IMG/VR virus record: IMGVR_UViG_2703718871_000019
Location: 1 to 10,662 of that record
Direction: 5' to 3' (one strand)
Length of the DNA: 10,662 nt
From: a virus
Lineage: Duplodnaviria > Heunggongvirae > Uroviricota > Caudoviricetes
A program made the translations under genes and the position numbers. The notes below the pieces were generated by a model. It did not search any database. It was not told the DNA's origin and saw only the letters and a list, made by a program, of their open reading frames with translations. Position 1 is the first letter of the stretch; each line of letters begins with the position of its first letter. Shown here piece by piece: positions 1 through 10,662 of this stretch.

Positions 1-798
1 TTAATGAACATTCGTCGCCGAAAACGAGTCTGTATCATTAGTGCGATGCAGTCTCTGCAAAGGATCTTGTTGATAAAATTGGCAGAAACGTTGCCACAAT
101 GAAGGGAAACGAGGAGCAAAAAGTTCTGGGGCGCTAAAGAAATATTCAGAAAGTACGGCAAAACATTCAGCAGGATCACTGGCAGCATAAGCATCAATGC
201 TCGCCGCATTCTCGCCAACTAATTCGATTTCTTCCTGAATGTTGTTCATTGCAGCATGAAGATCGTGTTCCCAGCCAGCAACCTCACGCAACGGAATAAA
301 GGGAACTCCGCTGGCGCGATCGCCGTTACGGGTGTCCAGCTTATGAGCGACTTCATGAATAATCAGGTTAAAACCAGAAGCATCAAAAGAATCTTGTATA
401 TCCAACCAGTTCAAAACGATAGGCCCTTGCTGCCAGCTCTGACCTGACTGAACAATACGTTGGTTATGCACCAGACCGATATCGTCTTCCCATTCATCAT
501 CGACCACAAATGGCGCAGGATAAATTAAGACTTCATGAAAACCATCCAGCCATTCCAGTCCTAACTCCAGAACGGGTAGGCAAAATAGAAGTGCTATCCG
601 GCAGCTTCTTAATGAATCCAGTTCAAAGCCCTGTAAAGGAACAAGCCGCTTTTGCTGTAAAAAACGTTCGGCAAGAGTGACTAATTTGCTTTGTTCCTGT
701 TCCGTCAGACACGTTAAAAGGGGGATCGATAGTGCTTCCTGCCAGGGAAGGGCAGTTTGATGTGCTGATTCTTGTACTTTCCAGGGCCACTTAATCAT
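1..798 (-). CDS. mtfA: MtfA (Mlc titration factor A), zinc-dependent peptidase-like protein; host gene
   Basis: The track ORF 1..837 (-) contains the sequence [23 protein letters not shown]... with an HEVAH zinc-binding motif, which I recognise as E. coli MtfA/YeeI. The likely true start is the internal Met at 798 (265 aa); the 13 upstream codons of the track ORF are probably not translated. Stop TAA is at 1-3. GC content is host-like. Confidence 0.88.
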
Positions 799-891
799 CG
801 TTTTGCTCGCAAACTCGTCACTTGAACAAAATTGCACGGACAGGGACTGTTAAAATGCCAAATTTCCTGGCATCATGGCAACCATCTGAAC

Positions 892-981
892 GGAGAGATG
901 CCGGAGCGGCTGAACGGACCGGTCTCGAAAACCGGAGTGGGGGCAACTCCACCGGGGGTTCAAATCCCCCTCTCTCCGCCA
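892..981 (+). tRNA. serU: tRNA-Ser (anticodon CGA), class II tRNA with long variable arm; prophage integration target
   Basis: Read by eye: acceptor stem GGAGAGA/TCTCTCC, discriminator G and encoded CCA at 979-981. Anticodon stem ACCGG/CCGGT encloses loop CTCGAAA, giving anticodon CGA. Long variable arm and T-arm GGGGG-TTCAAAT-CCCCC. Length 90 nt. mtfA is divergent and adjacent, as I recall for the E. coli serU locus. Confidence 0.93.
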
Positions 982-998
982 GAATTCAATCACTTACA

Positions 999-1060
999 CA
1001 TCATTAAGTCAATGATGAAAATCACACTTGGAATTACTTGGAATATTTTGTTGGAATATT
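999..1060. repeat. Candidate attL P'-arm: 7-bp inverted repeat CATCATT-n5-AATGATG (999-1017) and three direct TTGGAAT repeats (1028-1034, 1038-1044, 1051-1057)
   Basis: The repeats lie 18-80 bp downstream of the tRNA 3' end and overlap the 3' end of int, which is where arm-type Int binding sites sit in a lambda-type attL. The functional assignment is inference. Confidence 0.4.
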
Positions 1061-2059
1061 CTGGGGTAATGGTACATCCAGTGTGGGTGAGATCTTTACT
1101 TTTCTATCATAGATTAGCACCTGTCCTTCGGTCTTGTGACCAGAGAAAAGTTGCTTATCCCGGCTACTACCTTCGTAATCTGATATCCCCTTGGCTTTAA
1201 GGTCATGGAATGTAAAATCCGTCGCGATCCCTGATATTTGTCCAGCCAAATTTCTTGCCTCAACCCACATTTCATTAAATCCTTTATACATGTAACGGTT
1301 GCCGTACTGATTGCTGATTACATAGGCTGACTTGGGTAGCTGTTTAGCTTTTTCTATAACTGATTGCAGACGGGGAGTCCAGGCTTTTATCTGTTTCTTT
1401 CCTGTTTTACCTTGCTGGATAAAGATCCCGTCGTTTCCGATCTGTTCCCATTTCAGAGACAACACATCGGAAATCCTTGCTGCGCACAGGTATGCAATTT
1501 CCATTGCGATAAAAACAGGCACAGGAGCCACGCTTAATACGGCCTGGTATTCTTTGTCAGTCACATAGCGCTCTCGGTTTTTGGCCTTGAATTTACTTAC
1601 ACCGGTACAAGGATTAGCCTTTACATACCCTCGTTCATACCCCCAACTGTAAACGCGTGACATGCTGCTTTTTTCATGGTTTGCCTGCGTTTTACTCTGC
1701 TCGCCCCTTTTGTCCATGTATCGTCTGATGTGCTCTGGTTTTACAGAATCGGCCAGCACCTTACCAAATACGGCCAGCAGCTTTTTTTGATGTTGCAGAT
1801 AATCTTTTTGCGTTCTGGGACTAAGATCGCTGTAATAGGCGCTGGCGAGAAATTTTTCCCACAAACGCCCAAATGTCATTGCCCGATCGCGATGGTTAAT
1901 TGTTTCTTCGTACTTTTTCCATAATGCGGCTAAACCATCCTCGATTGCAGTTAAGGTTACAGATTCTCTGGATGTCGGTTTCCATACATAACTATATTTA
2001 TTGGGGTATACCTTTGGCGGTAATTTTTCGTGTTCGGGATTTTTCCTTCGTCTTCCCAT
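1034..2059 (-). CDS. int: Tyrosine recombinase, lambda-family phage integrase
   Basis: 341 aa. The N-terminus MGRRRKNPEHEKLPPKVY resembles the lambda Int arm-binding domain (MGRRRSHERRDLPPNLY). The C-terminal catalytic region has ARISDV (Arg), FHDLK (His) and GHKTEGQVLIYDR (His/Arg/Tyr nucleophile). The gene is immediately adjacent to the tRNA 3' end, and its start overlaps the xis stop (TAATG). Confidence 0.92.
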   Translation of the reverse strand: MGRRRKNPEHEKLPPKVYPNKYSYVWKPTSRESVTLTAIEDGLAALWKKYEETINHRDRAMTFGRLWEKFLASAYYSDLSPRTQKDYLQHQKKLLAVFGKVLADSVKPEHIRRYMDKRGEQSKTQANHEKSSMSRVYSWGYERGYVKANPCTGVSKFKAKNRERYVTDKEYQAVLSVAPVPVFIAMEIAYLCAARISDVLSLKWEQIGNDGIFIQQGKTGKKQIKAWTPRLQSVIEKAKQLPKSAYVISNQYGNRYMYKGFNEMWVEARNLAGQISGIATDFTFHDLKAKGISDYEGSSRDKQLFSGHKTEGQVLIYDRKVKISPTLDVPLPQNIPTKYSK

Positions 2060-2262
2060 TAGATCGCACCGAAATCAGGTTCAGCCTCACGTGGTGGTAA
2101 AGTGTTTCTACAGGTAAACAGTTCCCGACTGACGATCGGTTTTCCACTACGATTGGTATAGAACGGAAGCCCATTTTTTATTAACCAGTTGCGCTGGTGG
2201 CTTGCATATTTGCAGCCCGTTAATATTAGCAATTCATCTTCGGTTAAAAATAAGCTGCTCAT
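2059..2262 (-). CDS. xis: Excisionase-like small DNA-binding protein (Xis)
   Basis: 67 aa, directly upstream of int with a 1-nt stop/start overlap. The LTEDELLILTGCKYASHQRNWLIKNGLPF segment looks like the winged-helix of prophage excisionases (DUF4224-like, from memory). Position is canonical. Confidence 0.7.
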   Translation of the reverse strand: MSSLFLTEDELLILTGCKYASHQRNWLIKNGLPFYTNRSGKPIVSRELFTCRNTLPPREAEPDFGAI

Positions 2263-2278
2263 AGCTATATCTCATAAC

Positions 2279-2306
2279 CGCCGCTAACTATATGCGGTTA
2301 GCGGCG
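2279..2306. promoter_or_regulatory. Perfect 10-bp inverted repeat CGCCGCTAAC-n8-GTTAGCGGCG in the 58-bp exo-xis intergenic gap
   Basis: Seen directly: 2279-2288 is the reverse complement of 2297-2306. No U-run follows on the coding (minus) strand, so it is not an intrinsic terminator. It may be an operator or RNA processing element controlling xis-int. Confidence 0.4.
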
Positions 2307-2320
2307 ATCAGGGTTGAACA

Positions 2321-4759
2321 TTAAAAATCAGCCTGACTCGGGAACAGTTTTTGCCAGATAGCTGAAACGTATTTTGCCTGGTAACGCGCATCGTGCAGGG
2401 CATTATGGCGTTCACCCTCAAATGTGGTGACGTTGCGGGCATCGAAATCCATCACCAACCCCAGAGCGACCATCGTTCTTACATCGCGATCATTGGTGTA
2501 ACGCCACGGGCAGGGGATCTCCTGCCGTTCATATGAACGGCGTAAAATCACGTTGTCGAAGTTGGCTCCATTTCCCCAGACCTGAACAAAAAACTCACCG
2601 GAGTTTTCGTCTATAAATTCCCGTAATTGTAAAAGCGCATCATCAAGCGGTATTCGATCAGCTAAAATGGCGGCACGGGCTTCGCCAGAGCGTTGAAGCC
2701 ACCATTCGATGGTGCTTATGTCTACAGTGCCGCCACATGTACCCATATCAATTATTTTGCTGAATTCAGGCCCCTGCTCTCCGGTTTGTGGATCGAAAAA
2801 TACAGCGCCTATTGAGGCTATTGGTGCGTCAGGATTTTTGCCCATTGTTTCAAGGTCAATCATCAGATGGTGCCACAACCTGTTGGTGGATGTGATTTCA
2901 CGATGACCGTTCACCTTAATTAAGGGATTTGCTGTCTCGCCTGTTTCATTATTGCCATTGGCATGTTGATCGCCTTCGGTGCACTCCTTGTTCGGGAGTC
3001 CGGCACTTTCCATTTCCTCCGGATCTTTTTCCCGTGCTTCATCCTGGCTTTCTTCGTTGAATGTCTCCTGGTAGGTTGCGTCACCCATCACTGCGCCACA
3101 ATCAGGGCAGTTACCACCACCAGTCTGATTGCATGCGGTACAAACTTTTTCCTCTTCCTGTTGCACTACTGGTTCAGGTTGTTTCGTTTCTGGCTCGTTT
3201 TGTAACGCATTTGGGCTGTTTTGTTCCGCTTTCTGACCGTTCTGTTCCGTTTCTTGCTGGTTCTGGTTCACAGAATCGCAGGTTTCAATCCCCTTAACCC
3301 ATTTTGGATCATTCGGGTCGCTAATCCCTTCAACAAACTCACCACGAGAAGCGGCAAGCAATTTGTCGGCATCTGGTCGACTGATGTCTGCTGCCTCCAT
3401 AATTTTATTTACTTCTTCAGCAGTAACTTTTACCTGTGACTTGTCATCCAGCGGCTGCGGGTCCTGATGATGTTCAACTGTATCCGCTGCCATTGTTTCA
3501 GCCGTTGCCTGTTCATCTGCCATTGCGCCAGATGGTTGCGGGTTTTCTTCATTATTTTTTTCTTCTTCTGTTTTGCACTCAGCAGCCAGTCCGCCGTTAA
3601 TTTCTTCCAGGATATCTTTTTCCGGTGTATGCCGGGCAGCCGTGAGAGTTTCAGTTGTGGGATTCTCGTGATCGGTCTCTGTCAGGTTGGCATTGATATA
3701 CCCCTGAAGACGTCCCGGGTAGTGATAAAACTCAGGGGGGGCGCTCCGGATAAGTGCAAAAATAGCTGCGCGGGAATAGTCCAGGATACCAGGGGTTGCG
3801 CGAAGTGCTGGGGACCATTCCCTGAACGGACTTTCTTTTTTCAGGACGATTTCTTTTGCGCGACGATAAACGCTCACGGGTATTTCATAAATATTAAAAT
3901 CCATCGGAAGTGTGGCTGCTGCAATCTCCACATCCAGAGTATCGAGGGTGTGTACTAAATCAGGATTACGATCCGTTTTATTTCCGCCACCGGCATTTGC
4001 ACCGGAAGCCGTGCGGGTGATGCGAGAAACACGATTTCCTTTCATCCACTCTTTTGTCAGCAGACCTCGATCGGTATAGTCAGCGTCCAGGTATGCTTCG
4101 AAAAAAGCAGTCATTAACCCCAGACTGGAATTAACGGGATTAGGGAAAACTTTGTCTGTGTCGCGTACCAGTTTATGAAGGTCGCGAATCTCCAGCGGGT
4201 CGAGCAGCTTTGTGTTGTGGGAAATAGCCAGGGCAGTAACAGCCGGCAGTTCTTCAGCTCGTGCGATATGTAATGCCTGAAGTTCTTCCCGTGAAACGTG
4301 CGTTACCGGTTTTTCGCTGCCATGTTGCGCAAGCCAGCGAATGGGCAGTTCCTGACCGGAAATCGGCAGGAGCATATTATCCTCAATCTCAGCCATGTTT
4401 TCGCCATTGACGTTGGTATTGTCAGTGCTGGCTGGTTTGTCCTGAACTGAGGGGGAGGGCGCTATAAATATCATTGTGATGCCATCTTCCCCGCCTTTTT
4501 CATAGCGGTTGCAGAATTCAGTATCAAACACGCCTTCCGGTGGAAGGTCATTCACAACGGGGAAATGGACGCGGACGGGTTTTTTGAAATCATCTGCGTC
4601 GTAGCCTGCCTCGTCCATTGCAACAACGCACCGTGAGATGGCAACAGATAATTTTTTTGCTGTAGTCCAGTAAAAACCTCCTTTAATCCCAAGGCGTTTT
4701 CTGACCTTGTCATTTTTTGCTTCGCAATATAGCGAAAATTCTTCTTTATCAGTGCTCAT
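2321..4759 (-). CDS. Prophage exonuclease: RecE/exonuclease VIII-like N-terminal and central scaffold fused to a C-terminal DnaQ-like DEDDh 3'-5' exonuclease domain
   Basis: 812 aa with GAGGT SD 7 nt upstream of the ATG. Residues about 110-260 (NTNVNGENM...[26 protein letters not shown]...[30 protein letters not shown]) match what I remember of Rac RecE. An acidic low-complexity linker spans aa about 375-620 and contains a C-x2-C-x8-C-x2-C motif ([16 protein letters not shown], about nt 3095-3142). The C-terminal about 180 aa carry DEDDh motifs: MIDLETMG (Exo I), FDNVIL (Exo II) and [13 protein letters not shown] (Exo III), at about nt 2345-2890. Confidence 0.8.
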
Positions 4760-4851
4760 GGATAAACCTCATAACTATTTTAAGGTTGTACGAACCCCTG
4801 CCATTGCTGGCATGCTTAATCAACGGGTATGGCGTTAATACGGCTGCTGGG

Positions 4852-5040
4852 TTATCCAGCCGGTGTTTCGTTATTCAGGTACAGCGATACTTTTTTTAAC
4901 GGGAGGCATTCACCAGAAATTTTTTGCTCGTCTCTTGCCTGGAGGCAGGATTCTTTACTGGCATAAATTCCGGTAATCACATTCTGTGATTCACCCGTTA
5001 TAAGAAAAACCGTCATCACCAGTGCAAATGCTGAAGTCAT
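4852..5040 (-). CDS. Hypothetical small protein with hydrophobic N-terminus (possible signal or membrane anchor)
   Basis: 62 aa. Its start overlaps the stop of the upstream small ORF (ATGA-type coupling). The N-terminus MTSAFALVMTVFLITG is hydrophobic. It sits between rha and exo, where lambdoid phages carry kil/cIII-type small genes. No family recognised. Confidence 0.4.
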   Translation of the reverse strand: MTSAFALVMTVFLITGESQNVITGIYASKESCLQARDEQKISGECLPLKKVSLYLNNETPAG

Positions 5041-5225
5041 TGACGTTCTCCGAAAATACCAAGTTCAAGAAGGGCAATTCTGGAGAGTATGGAATTATCA
5101 TTGAGAAGATAAGGCTCATATTTTCTCATCTTAATGGCATCTTCAGTAAACTCCCGGTTACTGAGCAGAACACCAATATCAAAACACCCTTCAGACGTAT
5201 TAACGTTTGGTAATAACGTTTCCAT
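5037..5225 (-). CDS. Hypothetical small prophage protein
   Basis: 62 aa with GAGGA SD 8 nt upstream of the ATG, lying 10 bp after the Rha stop and translationally coupled to the next ORF. No family recognised. Confidence 0.45.
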   Translation of the reverse strand: METLLPNVNTSEGCFDIGVLLSNREFTEDAIKMRKYEPYLLNDNSILSRIALLELGIFGERQ

Positions 5226-5235
5226 TATCGCGTCC

Positions 5236-5793
5236 TCAACAATGAATTTTTAGTAATTGCTCCACAGTCATATTTTTAATTGCGCTCCGGTTTACAAGAG
5301 TCCAGCCTTGTTTCTCCAGATAAAACTGGAAGGTATCCAGGGTGCAGACCATTGCACCATCAGGAACGGTTTCAGTGAATTTGATATTGCCGTGTTCGTC
5401 GAGACGGATAACCAGGGTACGTCCGTCCCCGTGAATCATTTTGTCGGGAGACGGGGCGTTATTCTGGCGCAGTTCTTTCTCCATGCGATCGAACTCAGCG
5501 ATGTAGGCTTCTTTAAATGCAGCGGCTTTTTTGCCGGTGAAGCCCATCACCAGGAAAACGAAGCCGTTTTTGGTGATTTGGTACATAGGGAGTTTGCGCC
5601 CGGTTGAGTCGGTATATTCACTGGGCGAAAAATTTCGCTCAGTGAATTCTGCTGAACAGTCTAGACGTGAAATTTTTGCCAGTACATCTTTGTGTGGTTT
5701 CCGGAAATACTCGGCAACAGCTAAAGAGGATGTAACAGCACGCCCATTGGCGATAGTAATTTCAGGGTGAGAAAGGGCAGGGATAGTAGCCAT
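5236..5793 (-). CDS. Rha-family phage regulatory protein (Phage_pRha domain)
   Basis: The segment AVTSSLAVAEYFRKPHKDVLAKI...LPMYQITKNGFVFLVMGFTGKKAAAFKEAYIAEFDRME matches the Rha domain pattern. The track ORF runs to 6087 (283 aa), but the Rha domain begins at about aa 110 and an intrinsic terminator lies inside the extension. I therefore prefer the internal start at 5793 (GGAGG 8 nt upstream, product MATIPALSHPEITIANGR..., 185 aa). Alternative starts are 5820 or 6087. Confidence 0.75.
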   Translation of the reverse strand: MATIPALSHPEITIANGRAVTSSLAVAEYFRKPHKDVLAKISRLDCSAEFTERNFSPSEYTDSTGRKLPMYQITKNGFVFLVMGFTGKKAAAFKEAYIAEFDRMEKELRQNNAPSPDKMIHGDGRTLVIRLDEHGNIKFTETVPDGAMVCTLDTFQFYLEKQGWTLVNRSAIKNMTVEQLLKIHC

Positions 5794-5957
5794 GATGGCA
5801 GCCTCCATGATGAATTTCATTAACTCACCACCGGAGGTAGCAATCTCATGGGTGGTGAGACGCACAGGGTTGCTACAACCGGTCATCATGGAACCCGGCC
5901 AGCCTTGCGGCTGCCCTGCACGCCCCACCATAATCTGAATGTGGCTGTGCATTACGC

Positions 5958-5982
5958 ATAAAAAAACCGCCTGAGCGCGGTT
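5958..5982 (-). terminator. Rho-independent terminator for leftward transcription (tL1-like)
   Basis: On the minus strand: stem AACCGC / GCGGTT with loop GCTCAG, followed by T-run TTTTTTT-AT (plus strand A7 at 5960-5966 precedes the hairpin at 5965-5982). No T-run follows on the plus strand, so it is unidirectional. Confidence 0.55.
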
Positions 5983-6574
5983 ATGCGCCATGATGAACAT
6001 CGGGGTAGCAATCCCGGCACCCGCTTTATGAGGTGCAGGTGCACTATAATTCCACCCGTTCTGGTTTTCAATAGCTACATTCAACATTTTCTCTTACCTT
6101 TCATCACCGAAGTGAACTTTGTCGATGCAGTGCCTGGTGCCTCCAGGTGACGTTAACCAGTTAACAATTAACGCCGGAATACAGAAGTATGCCCGTTACG
6201 CCCCGTAAAAGACCACTTTACGGTTTTAACTGTTCCGCGTGCGCTTAGCCGCATTCACCGCATCACAAAATTCACTTTAAAAAGGGTGGCAGAGCAGTCA
6301 CGGAGTAGAACTGATGCCACCAAAGACTACACATGGGTATTGTGGCGGGGCTGTCACTTAAGCGTATGGTCAACCTGACAACCCGGTGCATTTTCTGGAG
6401 CAATGGAGGAAACCCCAGCCATACTTACCGCCGCGCCATTTCGCGGATTGCCACAACCGGAAGCGCACGGTCGAAGAAATCTAACGACAAGCCTTCTAAG
6501 GGAAAGAGCTTCGCCGTACGCTTTCGCGTTGTGTGCCTGCTTTTAACCACGTCAGGCGAGGTGGTTTCCGTCGT

Positions 6575-6624
6575 TCCCCAACGACAGGAAATCTGTATAA
6601 TCTGGATATCCCCAACAACAGGAA
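6575..6624. promoter_or_regulatory. Two 16-bp direct repeats TCCCCAAC(G/A)ACAGGAA (6575-6590, 6609-6624) flanking a TG-TATAAT element (6594-6601)
   Basis: The repeats are 15/16 identical and 34 bp apart, which is not a multiple of 3 and argues against coding. A perfect -10 hexamer lies between them. Candidate promoter and regulator binding sites upstream of the + strand 2-TM gene. Confidence 0.4.
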
Positions 6625-6799
6625 GGTGTTTTATATGGTGGTTCAAAAGAATTGTTCAGGTACTGGTAAGCCTGCGGACAGGGCGGACATTCCGAATACC
6701 AGGAAACATATACCTGAGAAAAACATACGACCAAAACCATCTCCAGCTCCTTCAGAGGAGAGGGGGAACAGCAACAATCAAGCAAGCAGGTGATGATAT

Positions 6800-7246
6800 A
6801 TGGACCGGGATGATATTCTTGACAGGGTTTTATATGGCTATTTTCTTGAACAACTATTCTCTGTAGCGACTGGTCGTCTCGATAAACTTCTCTCAGTGGT
6901 GAGTATTATCCTCGGTTCATCTGTCATTGGTGGATTTATTCCTGAAGTTTCTGGAGTTCTCATTGTTGTGATAGCAACCGTTCAAACGATTTACGGATTC
7001 GGACAAAAGTCAGGTAACGCAATGAGAAAATCCGCAGAATATCTGCAGCTTTATGATGATGCAGAAAAATATTCCGATTCGGAATTGAAAATTCAGTTAA
7101 AGCTTCTGGAAAAAACAGATGATAATATTTGGTCGTCGCTTAAAGATATCGCAATCTTAAAAACCCGGATCAAAATAGGAATCTCCGTAGAACAACAAGA
7201 GAAACTGTCTGCAAAATCCAAATTGATGCGATTCCTTTGTGGTTAG
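6800..7246 (+). CDS. AT-rich moron gene encoding a 148-aa two-TM membrane protein with a charged helical C-terminal tail; candidate superinfection-exclusion or abortive-infection effector
   Basis: AGGTGA SD 7 nt upstream of the ATG. GC content is about 33-35 percent against about 50 percent in flanks (two 60-nt lines counted by hand). Predicted TM1 LLSVVSIILGSSVIGGFI and TM2 VLIVVIATVQTIYGF, followed by a Lys/Glu-rich helical tail. It runs opposite to the surrounding leftward operon, in the position that sieB occupies in Rac-type prophages. No family recognised with certainty. Confidence 0.6.
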   Translation: MDRDDILDRVLYGYFLEQLFSVATGRLDKLLSVVSIILGSSVIGGFIPEVSGVLIVVIATVQTIYGFGQKSGNAMRKSAEYLQLYDDAEKYSDSELKIQLKLLEKTDDNIWSSLKDIAILKTRIKIGISVEQQEKLSAKSKLMRFLCG

Positions 7247-7344
7247 GAATACCCAGATTGTTAAAGATCATGCCGGATGCTTACCCGTGTCCGGCGAACG
7301 TATTCCACTTCGCCTGTGGAGAACTCTTTAATTACTAACCTTCA

Positions 7345-7497
7345 TCAGTCAGAGTTTCTTGCTAACCAGCGACGCGCGCCAGCTGCGGTTTTAAACGTTT
7401 TGCTTCTGGTATACGTCATCGCGGTAAACGTGCCGTCCTGGTTGGGAAACACGCCGCATACCAGAGATTCGTTGTTGCCAAGATTGAGCGTATCCAT
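7345..7497 (-). CDS. Small prophage protein, YdaF-like (DUF1391-like), 50 aa
   Basis: Below the 60-aa cutoff of the track and found by manual translation: ATG at 7497 with GAGGT SD 5 nt upstream, product MDTLNLGNNESLVCGVFPNQDGTFTAMTYTRSKTFKTAAGARRWLARNSD, stop TGA at 7345-7347. It resembles my recollection of Rac YdaF and lies between the repressor operon and the sieB-position gene as in Rac. The overlapping + strand ORF 7277..7537 is rejected. Confidence 0.5.
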   Translation of the reverse strand: MDTLNLGNNESLVCGVFPNQDGTFTAMTYTRSKTFKTAAGARRWLARNSD

Positions 7498-7701
7498 GTT
7501 GACCTCATTTACCCTTAACGCCGGGTCGCGGAACTAAAAACCTGCTGCGCTGTTATACAAAGTATTCCCGCCGTCATGTTCATACGCCTCGGGCTGGCTA
7601 CTTAACCCCTGACCACTGCCGGGTAACTCGAAGTATTGCCTGGCGTTCTGTGGGGCGGGGGGGTTGATGAATGAACAATACCACTACTATTTAATTATGT
7701 A

Positions 7702-7716
7702 AATAGCAGTGCTATT
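7702..7716. promoter_or_regulatory. Perfect palindrome AATAGCA-g-TGCTATT; candidate OL-type operator over a leftward early promoter
   Basis: 7-bp arms are exact reverse complements. The half-site TGCTATT recurs twice in the repressor/cro intergenic region (8808-8814, 8833-8839). It sits just downstream of the repressor-operon terminator and upstream of the ydaF-like gene, with -35/-10-like hexamers nearby on the minus strand (TTGCCA; TATTGT). Confidence 0.4.
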
Positions 7717-7724
7717 ATCGTGGC

Positions 7725-7750
7725 AAGAAAAAAACCACCCGAAGGTGGTT
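7725..7750 (-). terminator. Rho-independent terminator ending the repressor-antitoxin-toxin operon
   Basis: On the minus strand: AACCACC-TTCG-GGTGGTT (7-bp stem, UUCG tetraloop) followed by TTTTTTTCT, 15 bp downstream of the toxin stop codon. No T-run follows on the plus strand. Confidence 0.7.
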
Positions 7751-7764
7751 GTTGACAGGAAGGA

Positions 7765-8055
7765 TTAACAGGTTTTGTTTGGATACTGTCTTCGTGAGTG
7801 AACTACATTTACGATCTCGATGTTAGATGCTGTTACTCGGTAAAGTATTATGTAGTTAGGATGAGTCACTATCTCACGAAGACTTGGAACTCTTTCGCTC
7901 GGTGGGTACAGATAAGGGTGTTCAGTAAGTGACAAAACTGATGTTTCAATGCGTATTTTTAGTCTACGTGCAGCGGGAGGGTTTTCCTTAGCAATATAGG
8001 CTACGATCTGACGTAAATCATCACGTGCAGAAGGTAGCCATAAAATGGGCAGCAT
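7765..8055 (-). CDS. ParE/RelE-superfamily type II toxin (ParE2-like)
   Basis: 96 aa. N-terminus MLPILWLPSARDDLRQIVAYIAKENPPAARRL and C-terminal ...IEIVNVVHSRRQYP are typical of ParE toxins. Its start overlaps the stop of the upstream antitoxin (TAATG). Confidence 0.85.
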   Translation of the reverse strand: MLPILWLPSARDDLRQIVAYIAKENPPAARRLKIRIETSVLSLTEHPYLYPPSERVPSLREIVTHPNYIILYRVTASNIEIVNVVHSRRQYPNKTC

Positions 8056-8246
8056 TACTCACTCCTGTTCGTTGCAGCTAATTGAGCAATAAGGTTTTCC
8101 ATTTCAGCCATTACTTCGTCATGTGGAATTGCAGGACGGGGATCTGAGAGGCTTGCTGCCACTTTGGCTCGCAACCATTCGTTATAGCTGTTTTCTTGTT
8201 CGACTGTTTCAAATTCAGAAATTATCGGGGAAAGGGCTGTACTCAT
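8055..8246 (-). CDS. Small type II antitoxin, PaaA2-like, partner of the ParE-type toxin
   Basis: 63 aa, acidic, immediately upstream of and translationally coupled to the toxin. GGAGG SD 6 nt upstream of the ATG. Size and arrangement match the PaaA2 antitoxin of the O157 paaR2-paaA2-parE2 module as I recall it. Confidence 0.7.
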   Translation of the reverse strand: MSTALSPIISEFETVEQENSYNEWLRAKVAASLSDPRPAIPHDEVMAEMENLIAQLAATNRSE

Positions 8247-8263
8247 GTTTTGACCTCCTCAGA

Positions 8264-8764
8264 TTAGGCGCGACGACCCTTTTGCGCGGCTAGCCATCGC
8301 GCAACGATTTCTTCAATTGATTCTTTTTTCTCCTTCATTTCCTTAAGCATTTTCTCTTTATCTTCTTTGGGGAAAGCCCTGAACGTCTGGAGCAAATCCC
8401 GCTCCATGGGGTCTATATTAAACGGAAGTTCGTTTTCCGATTGTTCCATATCTGCAGATATAGTGACAACATTGTCCTCCCCAGATTCTTGGGGATACAT
8501 CCTTACAATTTGTAACAACTCGGCCATATCTGGTCTGATTGACTCGGGAGGAACTTGCAGCAACCCTGCGAACTTGATAACAGCCTCAAGATTTAAAGGT
8601 GTCTGACCATTTAGATAATGGCTTACAGCTCCCTGTGTCGAAAATCCCAGAATTTCTGCCGCACGCTCTTGGGTTAACCCTAGTTGATTTTTTTTCGCCG
8701 TCCAGATTTCTTTCAGTCTCTGGGCGGCTTGCAGGTCGATCTCTGACAGGGATTTTCTTTTCAT
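8264..8764 (-). CDS. HTH (XRE/cI-type) transcriptional regulator, PaaR2/RacR-like; likely prophage immunity repressor and TA operon regulator
   Basis: 166 aa. N-terminal helix-turn-helix LGLTQERAAEILGFSTQGAVSHYLNGQ. No S24 peptidase domain is visible in the C-terminus. It is the first gene of the operon and is divergent from the cro-like gene across a repeat-rich operator region. Confidence 0.8.
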   Translation of the reverse strand: MKRKSLSEIDLQAAQRLKEIWTAKKNQLGLTQERAAEILGFSTQGAVSHYLNGQTPLNLEAVIKFAGLLQVPPESIRPDMAELLQIVRMYPQESGEDNVVTISADMEQSENELPFNIDPMERDLLQTFRAFPKEDKEKMLKEMKEKKESIEEIVARWLAAQKGRRA

Positions 8765-8871
8765 ACCTTCAATTCTAATAAGATTATTAATCTCTTTGAA
8801 ATAGTGATGCTATTTACTTTTAAAAATAACAATGCTATTAATGATCGTGATGACATCACATGAGGTGAACA
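8765..8871. promoter_or_regulatory. Divergent promoter/operator region between the repressor and the cro-like gene (OR analogue)
   Basis: AT-rich 107-bp gap containing two TGCTATT motifs (8808-8814, 8833-8839) and the perfect palindrome GTGATG-a-CATCAC (8847-8859) just upstream of the cro-like SD. Confidence 0.55.
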
Positions 8872-9147
8872 ATGAATCTTGGAGAATATTTGCATCATTC
8901 CGGTATAACTCAGAAGCATTTTGCTGAAATTGTTGGGGTAACCCAAGGGATGGTAAGCCATGTCATTACCGGACGGGCGAAACTTACGGGGGAAAAAATT
9001 TTACGCTGGTGCGAAGCAACAGGCTGGATAGTAACTCCGCACGAGATTGATAGCAGTACTTATCCCAACCCAACCGACGGCTTACCTGTCGAGTATCAGG
9101 CTAACACACAACCAGAGGCGGGGGTGATTCATGAAAATCAAGCATGA
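8872..9147 (+). CDS. Cro/YdaS-like HTH DNA-binding protein
   Basis: 91 aa with GAGGTGA SD. HTH segment QKHFAEIVGVTQGMVSHVITGRAKLTGEKI. Divergent from the repressor and first gene of the rightward operon. Confidence 0.75.
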   Translation: MNLGEYLHHSGITQKHFAEIVGVTQGMVSHVITGRAKLTGEKILRWCEATGWIVTPHEIDSSTYPNPTDGLPVEYQANTQPEAGVIHENQA

Positions 9148-9556
9148 ACACATCCGCATGGCAATGAATGCCTGGGCGTATCCAGACGGTGAGAAAGTTC
9201 CAGCAGCTGAAATAGCCCGGACTTATTTCGAGCTGGGGATGACGTTCCCGGAACTGTACGACGACAGCCATCCGGAAGCCCTGGCTCGTAATACCCAGAA
9301 AATTTTCCGCTGGGTGGAGAAGGACACGTCTGATGCTGTTGAAAAAATTCAGGCGCTGTTACCGGCGATCGAAAAGGCGATGCCGCCTTTGCTGGTGGCC
9401 CGTATGCGCAGTCACAGTTCTGAATATTACCGGGAGATCGTCGAACGACGGGATCGGCTGGTGAAAGATGTGGATGATTTTGTCGCTGTAGCGATCGCCT
9501 GGGGCACCCTGACTAACAGTGGTGGTCAGCCTGGTAATGCAGTTGTTGTGCATTGA
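9131..9556 (+). CDS. YdaT-like protein (cII-position regulator/toxin-like family)
   Basis: 141 aa, overlapping the cro-like gene by 17 nt. Size and position match Rac YdaT; the sequence-level resemblance is from memory only. Confidence 0.65.
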   Translation: MKIKHEHIRMAMNAWAYPDGEKVPAAEIARTYFELGMTFPELYDDSHPEALARNTQKIFRWVEKDTSDAVEKIQALLPAIEKAMPPLLVARMRSHSSEYYREIVERRDRLVKDVDDFVAVAIAWGTLTNSGGQPGNAVVVH

Positions 9557-9618
9557 CCAACAATATTTATACCGGATTTCTTCCGGAAGTTCGTGGGTAA
9601 AGTTCGGTATCAGAAGAG

Positions 9619-10662
9619 GTGAGTATGGCTAATGCCTGGCTCAGATTGTGGCATGACATGCCAAATGACCCCAAGTGGCGAACGATTGCCAGGGTATCAG
9701 GACAGCCAATCGCAACAGTGATGGCAGTGTATATCCATCTTCTGGTGAGCGCGTCACGAAATGTCACGACATGTCACGGCGTGTCACTACGTGGTCACAT
9801 TGATGTCACGACGGAAGATTTAGCAAGTGCGCTTGATGTGACGGAAGACGTAATTGATTCAATTTTGCATGCAATGCAGGGGCGGGTTCTGGATGGTGAC
9901 CTTATTTCCGGATGGGAAAAACGTCAGGTGCTGAAAGAGGACAATGGTAACGTTTCGCAAACGGCAAAATCCCCGGCAGAGCGCAAGAGAGCGCAGCGGG
10001 AGCGCGAAAAGCTGCGGAAATATGATGCTGATTGTCACGATGAGTCACGACGTGTCACGCATCTGTCACGACAAGTCACGACAGATAAAGATACAGATAC
10101 AGAATTAAACCCCACACATAACGCGCGCATGCGCGAGAGTGCTCCAACCGGTGAGTCGAATGGTGCGTCGTTGCAGACAGCCGAACCTGAATACCTGGAC
10201 GGCCTGAGCGAACCGATCGGGAAATTTTCGATGACCACTGTCTGGCAGCCGTCGCCGGATTTTCGACAACGGGCAGCAGTGTGGGGTATGGCTCTGCCTG
10301 AGCCGGAATTTACACCTGCTGAGCTTGCCGCATTCCGGGATTACTGGATGGCGGAGGGGAAGGTTTTCACGCAGGTTCAGTGGGAGCAGAAATTTGCCCG
10401 CCACGTGCAGCACGTCAGGGCACAGGTAAAACCAGTCAGCAAGGGGGTAAGCCATGCAGCATCAGGTGGCACGGCATCACGGGCAGTTCAGAAAATCCGG
10501 GCAGCACGAGAACAGTGGGAACGTGAAAACGGATTTATCAGCAACGGAAACGGCCTGGAAGCTGTGGGAACTTATGGGGGAGGTGTATTCGAACCGATGG
10601 ACCCAGAAGAACGGGGCTGCGCCGTCGAAACTCTGGATTGCTCAGATTGGCGCGATGACTGA
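9619..10662 (+). CDS. Phage replication initiation protein (YdaU/O-like N-terminal region with DnaT-like C-terminal domain)
   Basis: 347 aa with AGAGGTGAG SD. N-terminus ANAWLRLWHDMPNDPKWRTIARVSG is typical of prophage replication proteins. C-terminal WQPSPDFRQRAAVWGMALPEPEFTPAELAAFRDYWMAEGKVF resembles the primosomal DnaT C-terminal domain. The gene contains iteron arrays. Stop TGA is the last 3 nt of the window. Confidence 0.8.
   Translation: MSMANAWLRLWHDMPNDPKWRTIARVSGQPIATVMAVYIHLLVSASRNVTTCHGVSLRGHIDVTTEDLASALDVTEDVIDSILHAMQGRVLDGDLISGWEKRQVLKEDNGNVSQTAKSPAERKRAQREREKLRKYDADCHDESRRVTHLSRQVTTDKDTDTELNPTHNARMRESAPTGESNGASLQTAEPEYLDGLSEPIGKFSMTTVWQPSPDFRQRAAVWGMALPEPEFTPAELAAFRDYWMAEGKVFTQVQWEQKFARHVQHVRAQVKPVSKGVSHAASGGTASRAVQKIRAAREQWERENGFISNGNGLEAVGTYGGGVFEPMDPEERGCAVETLDCSDWRDD
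9751..9845. repeat. Iteron array 1: six to seven GTCACGA/GTCAC repeats at 10-11 bp spacing inside the replication gene
   Basis: GTCAC at 9753, 9763, 9773, 9783, 9794 and 9805, with a degenerate TGTGACG at about 9837. The repeats are in frame and encode ...SASRNVTTCHGVSLRGHIDVTTED.... Confidence 0.65.
10031..10110. repeat. Iteron array 2 (five GTCACG repeats) followed by an AT-rich tract; probable replication origin
   Basis: GTCACG at 10034, 10044, 10054, 10065 and 10075 with 10-11 bp phasing, followed immediately by ACAGATAAAGATACAGATACAGAATTAAA. This is the lambda-type arrangement of iterons plus an AT-rich unwinding region within the initiator gene. Confidence 0.65.

Follow-up and report, generated by a model that had tools for sequence, protein, structure and literature searches.

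The recE gene of the Rac prophage of Escherichia coli K-12 (b1350) encodes exonuclease VIII, in which residues 592-866 form a PD-(D/E)XK nuclease that degrades double-stranded DNA (dsDNA) in the 5'-3' direction. Full-length RecE is widely used in linear-linear recombineering. The function of its first ~590 residues is listed as unknown in a 2023 review (PMC11611040). Here we describe a gene in which this N-terminal region, referred to below as the scaffold, is followed by a nuclease domain, or head, of a different family. The gene lies on the minus strand at positions 2321-4759 of a 10,662-nucleotide stretch (positions 1 to 10,662 of IMG/VR virus record IMGVR_UViG_2703718871_000019, Caudoviricetes), which we call the window and which shows a lambdoid prophage's left end within the chromosome of E. 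coli.

The best sequence and structure match to the head is DexA of phage T4, a free-standing protein of 227 amino acids (aa) from a virulent phage, annotated in GenBank as a 3'-to-5' DNA exonuclease. The structure of DexA has been solved (Nucleic Acids Research 2025, PMC12153337); in this protein, W152 and D169 have a proposed role in recognition of 5-hydroxymethylcytosine, and D90 is an Asp involved in tetramer formation. According to the same paper, EcD (HREX), a homologue of DexA from E. coli, digests T4 DNA, spares unmodified DNA and, when plasmid-borne, protects against T4. EcD, likewise a short enterobacterial DexA-like enzyme of the DEDDh type, is the one E. coli member for which a functional test has been reported. 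The founder of the Pfam family to which the head belongs (PF16473), Rv2179c of Mycobacterium tuberculosis, is a stand-alone chromosomal protein and a distant relative, since it gave no phmmer match at E up to 0.01 in a search of the PDB. Searching the literature for Rv2179c together with prophages, and for the N-terminal region of RecE, we found nothing.

The recombination (Rec) modules of lambdoid phages were recently surveyed (Genome Research 2025, PMC12315714). According to this survey, DnaQ-like 3'-5' nucleases occur in or near these modules, and a class with phage Tritos as prototype has a nuclease only, with no single-strand annealing protein (SAP), single-stranded DNA-binding protein (SSB) or anti-RecBCD gene, and with many top-strand Chi sites. 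We found no description of a fusion of a RecE scaffold with a DnaQ head in its main text. Both databases and this paper already include the protein, the architecture of its two domains and the phage class to which it belongs.

The gene is an open reading frame (ORF) of 812 codons with an ATG start, a GAGG 7 nt 5' of the ATG and a TAA stop at 2321-2323. An initial annotation, made from the sequence alone, had proposed that the N-terminal and central parts of the product, with their acidic linker and Cys4 motif, resemble those of RecE and that the catalytic domain appears to have been exchanged for a DnaQ-like DEDDh domain. Both parts of this proposal are borne out by the following features, given from the N-terminus onwards:

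4460-4747, minus strand: scaffold domain 1, small alpha/beta (aa 5-100)
4193-4609, minus strand: Exonuc_VIII (PF06630) match in Pfam (aa 51-189)
3605-4426, minus strand: scaffold domain 2, mostly helical (aa 112-385), with an AlphaFold2 predicted local distance difference test score (pLDDT) mostly above 90
3422-3601, minus strand: acidic linker 1, predicted to be disordered (aa 387-446; pLDDT below 50)
3296-3421, minus strand: small helical module (aa 447-488), conserved in RecE
3098-3142, minus strand: Cys4 zinc-ribbon-like motif, CTAC-x7-CPDC (C540/C543/C551/C554), conserved in Rac RecE
2888-3097, minus strand: acidic disordered linker 2 (aa 555-624), which holds the head-swap junction
2354-2872, minus strand: predicted DEDDh 3'-5' exonuclease head, Rv2179c-like by Pfam (aa 630-802)

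The Pfam match to Exonuc_VIII has an E value of 2.8e-34, and the NCBIfam RecE equivalog model NF007259 scores 885.6 bits, below its cut-off of 1269, with positions 1-602 of its 877 matched. In BLASTP, aa 50-614 align with residues 42-591 of Rac RecE (from strain MG1655) at 56% identity, Cys4 motif and acidic stretches included, and the first 49 residues do not align with Rac RecE. Common to the two proteins are ~600 N-terminal residues with a conserved core, the acidic linkers, the LLAASRGEF module and the Cys4 motif. Scaffold domain 2 is the best-conserved part of the RecE N-region, and window positions 3981-4421 (aa 113-260) share 88% DNA identity with Rac recE.

The full-length AlphaFold2 model, built from 110 sequences, is confident at aa 5-100, about 190-385, 447-488 and 625-805 and has very low confidence at 387-446 and 489-624. 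Given a predicted template modelling score (pTM) of 0.38, the modelled protein looks like beads on a string. Within the scaffold, aa 1-390 have a confident fold that resembles no solved structure, and no relative of domain 2 (aa 112-385) was found in the PDB or BFVD. The stretch of aa 361-440 holds 22 Asp or Glu residues, and the small helical module has a weak UBA-like Pfam match (E 0.015).

Similarity to RecE ends within acidic linker 2. BLASTN similarity to Rac recE stops at window position 2919, in codon 614, and BLASTP gives no alignment between residues beyond 614 and those of Rac RecE beyond 591. The head-swap junction falls between codons 614 and 615 (nt 2918/2917), inside this linker and, as judged from the alignment, just before the start of the RecE nuclease domain. 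Where Rac RecE carries its PD-(D/E)XK exonuclease, a DEDDh domain stands in the window protein.

Pfam assigns aa 630-802 to the Rv2179c-like family PF16473 (E 1.4e-62; 211 bits against a cut-off of 27; profile positions 1-177 of 177), which together with PF06630 gives the pair of families that had been anticipated. The quoted motifs are all present, MIDLETMG at 633-640, FDNVIL at 734-739 and the H-x4-D stretch at 785-797. The catalytic residues are D635 (2855-2857), E637 (2849-2851), D735 (2555-2557), H785 (2405-2407) and D790 (2390-2392); the initial annotation had numbered the last two correctly, but its D634/E636 were one too low. They correspond to D7, E9, D119, H186 and D191 of T4 DexA and are invariant in seven aligned sequences, from an alignment with DexA and six stand-alone homologues.

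T4 DexA (8KEL/8KEN) was the sole entry returned by a PDB sequence search with the protein (E 1.5e-5), so no RecE nuclease structure was found in this way. It matches aa 632-791 at ~29% identity and shares both the DEDDh pentad and the fold, but has extra loops and no RecE scaffold. For aa 631-810 of our model, block means of pLDDT are mostly 82-97, with one block at 72. In a Foldseek search of the PDB, DexA ranked highest (E 1.3e-8), ahead of RNase T, oligoribonuclease (Orn), REXO2 and Cap18; DexA, RNase T and Orn have a probability of 1.00. Among the 50 listed of 90 matches with E<=0.001, all are DEDD-type exonucleases except one DNA polymerase, and no RecE structure occurs. By its model, the head has an RNase-H-like fold of the DnaQ type, and 3'-5' polarity is predicted from membership in the DEDDh family.

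Many database records for such proteins carry the name exodeoxyribonuclease VIII, as would befit an ordinary RecE, i.e., a 5'-3' recombination exonuclease with an overlooked RecT. We consider this hardly conceivable. No PD-(D/E)XK domain (RecE 592-866) was detected by Pfam, NCBIfam, BLASTP, the PDB sequence search or the fold search, and tblastn with the RecE head at E up to 0.01 found none in the window, in 80 related IMG/VR loci (L008-L087, each taken with 10 kb upstream of the head) or in loci L001, L002 and L005. RecT, Bet and Erf are absent as well, in contrast to E. coli genomes with the RecE head, where recT was annotated under the match in 8 of 8 rows sampled across the ranking. A canonical RecE with a missed RecT is refuted by these two absences.

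The lack of an annealase partner, which had also been claimed from the sequence, was examined by several routes. When the window's other main ORFs, from int up to the YdaT/cII-like gene, were scanned with Pfam and PHROG, none was detected. With Rac RecT, lambda Bet, Exo and Gam, and P22 Erf, Abc1 and Abc2 as queries, tblastn gave no match at E up to 0.01 in the window, the 80 loci, L001, L002 or L005, although such a search would miss very divergent annealases such as the Sak4 or Gp2.5 types. The complete 46-kb genome of phage Tritos likewise lacks RecT, Bet, Erf, Exo, Gam and Abc genes and has no annotated and no tblastn-detectable annealase. A Pfam scan of 139 ORF-cluster representatives from the 80 loci is no proof of absence, because only the 25 most frequent of 87 families were listed, and the tblastn search replaced it. 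No SSB family matched among the scanned window ORFs, with no search aimed at SSB. Rac recE occupies the same place in the leftward early operon near xis-int and is followed by recT, ralR and rcbA, whereas the window gene is followed by none of the three: as had been stated, xis (ORF 2059-2262) begins after a gap of exactly 58 bp.

Tritos offers a close parallel. Its gene order, int-xis-nuclease-ydfD-dicB, is that of the window, and its module has no SAP or anti-RecBCD gene, as is the case in the window operon. The Tritos nuclease, of 823 aa, is a homologue of the window protein: the heads are 79% identical, and over scaffold aa 270-614 identity is 49%. In place of window aa 1-269 it begins with ~245 residues of a different N-terminal module. 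Chi sites (GCTGGTGG) in the ~9.7 kb of prophage covered by the window number two on the plus strand (2193 and 9391) and none on the minus strand. Tritos has 9 on the top and 2 on the bottom strand, and the 80 loci, which are closely related so that their counts are not independent, have 281 and 24 in 939 kb. These counts are compatible with the Chi-rich, Rec-module-poor class outlined in PMC12315714.

The initial annotation was unaware of this published Tritos-type class, of the 3'-5' exonuclease label in databases and of how common the architecture is. A protein identical to that of the window occurs in 333 NCBI contigs under the names "exonuclease" or "3'-5' exoribonuclease", and among the best 120 clusters PF06630 and PF16473 are found together in all. 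DNA of the head (2321-2917) was present in 3253 of 5426 complete E. coli genomes, at 6692 places in total and as many as 7 times in one genome. For the RecE nuclease head, matching DNA was found in 1736 E. coli genomes, at 1827 places; on these genome counts, the DEDDh version is the commoner of the two in E. coli. The gene is also found in the sequenced phage genomes Tritos, HannyBb, mEp460_ev081 and PhiR42_1.

We asked whether the fusion might be a non-functional chimera decaying in cryptic prophages, as disrupted copies occur and many database entries are partial. In E. coli JNEC-KY171 (L092:4501-6939, at the mtfA/tRNA-Ser site), the gene has come apart into a RecE-family pseudogene and, downstream of it, an ORF for a 3'-5' exonuclease, an annotation which shows that the NCBI pipeline recognizes both halves. 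We regard decay as very improbable. Pairwise ratios of nonsynonymous to synonymous substitution rates (dN/dS) against 19 homologues are 0.10-0.37 for aa 1-360, 0.17-0.34 for aa 361-614 and 0.13-0.22 for aa 615-812, well below 1, and all three regions are under purifying selection. In 72 of the 80 loci the head lies within a fused ORF of 796-858 aa, 823 aa being the commonest length, and the other 8 have shorter ORFs. No aligned head departs from the catalytic residues, and sequenced phage genomes carry the gene.

The scaffold is not tied to one head. From representatives of 50%-identity clusters matching the scaffold, 83 of at least 450 aa were kept; by BLASTP, 14 of these have a DEDDh head, 21 a RecE-type head and 48 neither. 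In the 48, Pfam detected only Exonuc_VIII (26), RecT (2) and DUF3799 (1), which fits the headless "RecE-2" proteins mentioned in PMC12315714. The two RecT-bearing representatives (within P0243-P0387) could be scaffold-RecT fusions or merged gene calls. The scaffold itself is mosaic: the commonest variant, with 823 aa (L009, L011, most of L008-L087 and Tritos L091:26518-28989), shares only scaffold aa 270-614 with the window protein, and its first ~245 residues are distinct (MSKVFICAAIPDE...).

Heads likewise occur alone. Stand-alone heads of 180-190 aa, 55-75% identical to that of the window, are present in Salmonella, Klebsiella, Enterobacter, Raoultella and Erwinia. In one Salmonella locus (L005), such a gene directly precedes xis-int; within L005:6703-8570 it abuts a dATP/dGTP pyrophosphohydrolase gene (PF04447), with overlapping stop and start. 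The same Salmonella prophage has YfdP and DUF2303 genes and, nearby, an LRR-NEL effector gene.

These observations suggest that the scaffold does something in its own right, whichever nuclease it holds, because it carries a nuclease of predicted opposite polarity, in a version commoner in E. coli than that with the RecE head, and both parts are under purifying selection. One way to read this, tentative and in our view unlikely, is that the RecE N-region is a head-swappable platform that brings nucleases of opposite polarity, or none, to a common target, for instance DNA ends or a host protein of recombination or replication. In that case, the DEDDh version would provide lambdoid phages with annealase-independent processing of DNA ends. 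Its products might be 5' overhangs able to anneal unaided, as happens in XthA-dependent in vivo cloning, or else it might adjust the outcome of RecBCD-Chi action. RecE and the DEDDh proteins form, in any case, a natural head-swap pair for studying the RecE N-terminal region.

The reading we favor, with a probability of about 0.6, is that the gene encodes a 3'-5' DNA exonuclease, produced during lytic growth by a phage that relies on the RecBCD-Chi recombination of its host. The head would have been joined to the scaffold through non-homologous recombination in the second linker, at the point where the PD-(D/E)XK domain of RecE begins. In the resulting protein, two folded scaffold domains, an acidic linker, the helical module, the zinc ribbon and the second acidic linker would tether the DEDDh head, which by a two-metal mechanism would remove nucleotides from DNA 3' ends in the 3'-to-5' direction. 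After induction or infection, the leftward early transcript would give rise to the enzyme, which would act without a phage annealase, trimming 3' ends rather than feeding such a partner. Host RecBCD/RecA recombination is probably used by these phages, since they have no RecBCD inhibitor and many correctly oriented Chi sites.

Several points weigh against this reading. RecBCD-Chi generates 3' tails, which one would expect a 3'-5' exonuclease to destroy, and DnaQ-type nucleases usually inhibit recombination, according to PMC12315714; for both reasons it is uncertain that the enzyme is linked to recombination. Being closely related, the 80 loci are not independent observations, and the window covers only the left end of the prophage, so that an annealase may be encoded elsewhere in it. 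Expression from pL is deduced from gene order. Finally, the family founder Rv2179c is described by Pfam as an exoribonuclease, which leaves room for an RNA substrate.

That last point leads to the possibility that the protein is an exoribonuclease acting on 3' ends of host, phage or RNA-phage RNA, like Rv2179c or the prophage-encoded ISG20-like DEDDh enzymes. Pfam calls PF16473 a 3'-5' exoribonuclease domain, and the structural neighbors that follow DexA are RNase T, oligoribonuclease and REXO2. In addition, prophage-borne DEDDh exonucleases with auxiliary domains block RNA phages (2026 preprint, PMC13344964), but that study chose ISG20-like proteins under 500 aa, and nothing links these to the window family. 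DNA is favored as the substrate because the same scaffold in RecE carries a dsDNA exonuclease and because DexA, the closest characterized relative by both sequence and structure, acts on DNA. An RNA-directed role appears improbable to us.

The relationship to DexA also raises the question of defense. Prophages often carry defense genes, and EcD, with its activity on T4 DNA and protection from T4 (PMC12153337), suggests a prophage nuclease for defense or superinfection exclusion that would degrade the hydroxymethylcytosine DNA of incoming T-even phages and spare that of the host. The head is in the same DexA-related family and keeps all catalytic residues. However, in a MAFFT alignment DexA W152 and D169 fall opposite T755 and V769 of the window protein, in a gapped loop whose alignment is uncertain, with W752, D771 and D773 within 2-4 residues of these columns; and D707 keeps the Asp of DexA D90, which is Ala in EcD. 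EcD, expressed as a stand-alone domain and compared here through its published primers, begins with MIDTET and has a different C-terminus, and is therefore not the window protein. Of these primers, 23 nt had no match in IMG/VR and 20 nt had one chance match without a DEDDh ORF. PADLOC returned just a weak, generic, CRISPR-associated DEDDh match (E 1.6e-4). Furthermore, the gene lies between dicB and xis in the leftward early operon which, by analogy with lambda and Rac, would be repressed in the lysogen, and no promoter of its own rises above chance. An EcD-like defensive role is, on this evidence, unlikely.

The early lytic position of the gene, together with the use of nucleases by phages against host systems, could also suggest an anti-defense or host-takeover factor, whose removal of 3' ends would destroy retron multicopy single-stranded DNA (msDNA), the cDNAs of defense-associated reverse transcriptases (DRT) or linear competitor DNA. 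The title of a 2026 preprint ties the host 3'-5' exonuclease SbcB to DRT control. We consider this role, which these arguments reach by inference only, quite improbable.

The gene is the sole nuclease of an early-left (pL-type) operon. Apart from it, no gene of the recombination type persists in the Chi-rich lambdoid prophages of a common class, many of them in O157 and other E. coli strains that make Shiga toxin (STEC), and for that reason its role bears on replication and DNA exchange of such prophages. With regard to sequence annotation there is nothing new here; the family is neither rare nor new, the interest is modest and the question is an experimental one.

The prophage is integrated at tRNA-Ser(CGA), beside mtfA. 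The complete leftward early operon is visible, since the window covers all of it from the cI-like repressor to int. The features around the nuclease gene are:

1-837, minus strand: mtfA, beside the prophage end
892-981: tRNA-Ser(CGA), beside the prophage end
1034-2059, minus strand: tyrosine integrase
2059-2262, minus strand: excisionase xis (DUF4224), immediately 3' of the nuclease gene
2263-2320, minus strand: adjacent 58-bp spacer with a stable GC-rich hairpin
2321-4759, minus strand: RecE-scaffold::DEDDh exonuclease, 812 aa, stop codon included
4852-5040, minus strand: DUF1482 (YdfD-like), upstream in the same leftward operon
5037-5225, minus strand: dicB, upstream in the same leftward operon
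5236-6087, minus strand: Ash/Rha regulator
6333-7537, plus strand: three ORFs without known family (177, 148 and 86 aa)
7765-8246, minus strand: RelE/RelB
8264-8764, minus strand: cI-like repressor
8872-9147, plus strand: cro-like gene
9131-9556, plus strand: YdaT/cII-like gene
from 9619, plus strand: DnaT-like replication gene

Around the nuclease gene, no promoter or terminator exceeded shuffled expectation; a weak promoter-like site at 4804-4777 is not above chance. The RelE/ParE-RelB toxin-antitoxin pair directly adjoins the cI-like repressor gene; its relB-like ORF (8055-8246) lay outside the Pfam and PHROG scans and takes its name from the H26 annotation. The three plus-strand ORFs, which oppose the leftward operon and sit between the Ash/Rha regulator and RelBE, had no match in Pfam, NCBIfam or PADLOC, and only that of 148 aa matches a PHROG, of unknown function. 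This region may be a variable part of the prophage, because even the E. coli genomes that match best account for only 81-84% of the window, and the H26 feature table has neither the Ash/Rha gene nor plus-strand ORFs at this position.

The hairpin in the 58-bp spacer is perfect and GC-rich (CGCCGCUAAC-loop-GUUAGCGGCG), without a U-tract, and has a minimum free energy (MFE) as RNA of -24.7 kcal/mol (z = -3.7). In the related prophages of the 80 loci, hairpins of the same shape but other sequence occur at the same place, directly after a conserved TAATGTTCAACC. To judge from these sequences, the element appears to be structured and conserved, with variation of a compensatory kind.

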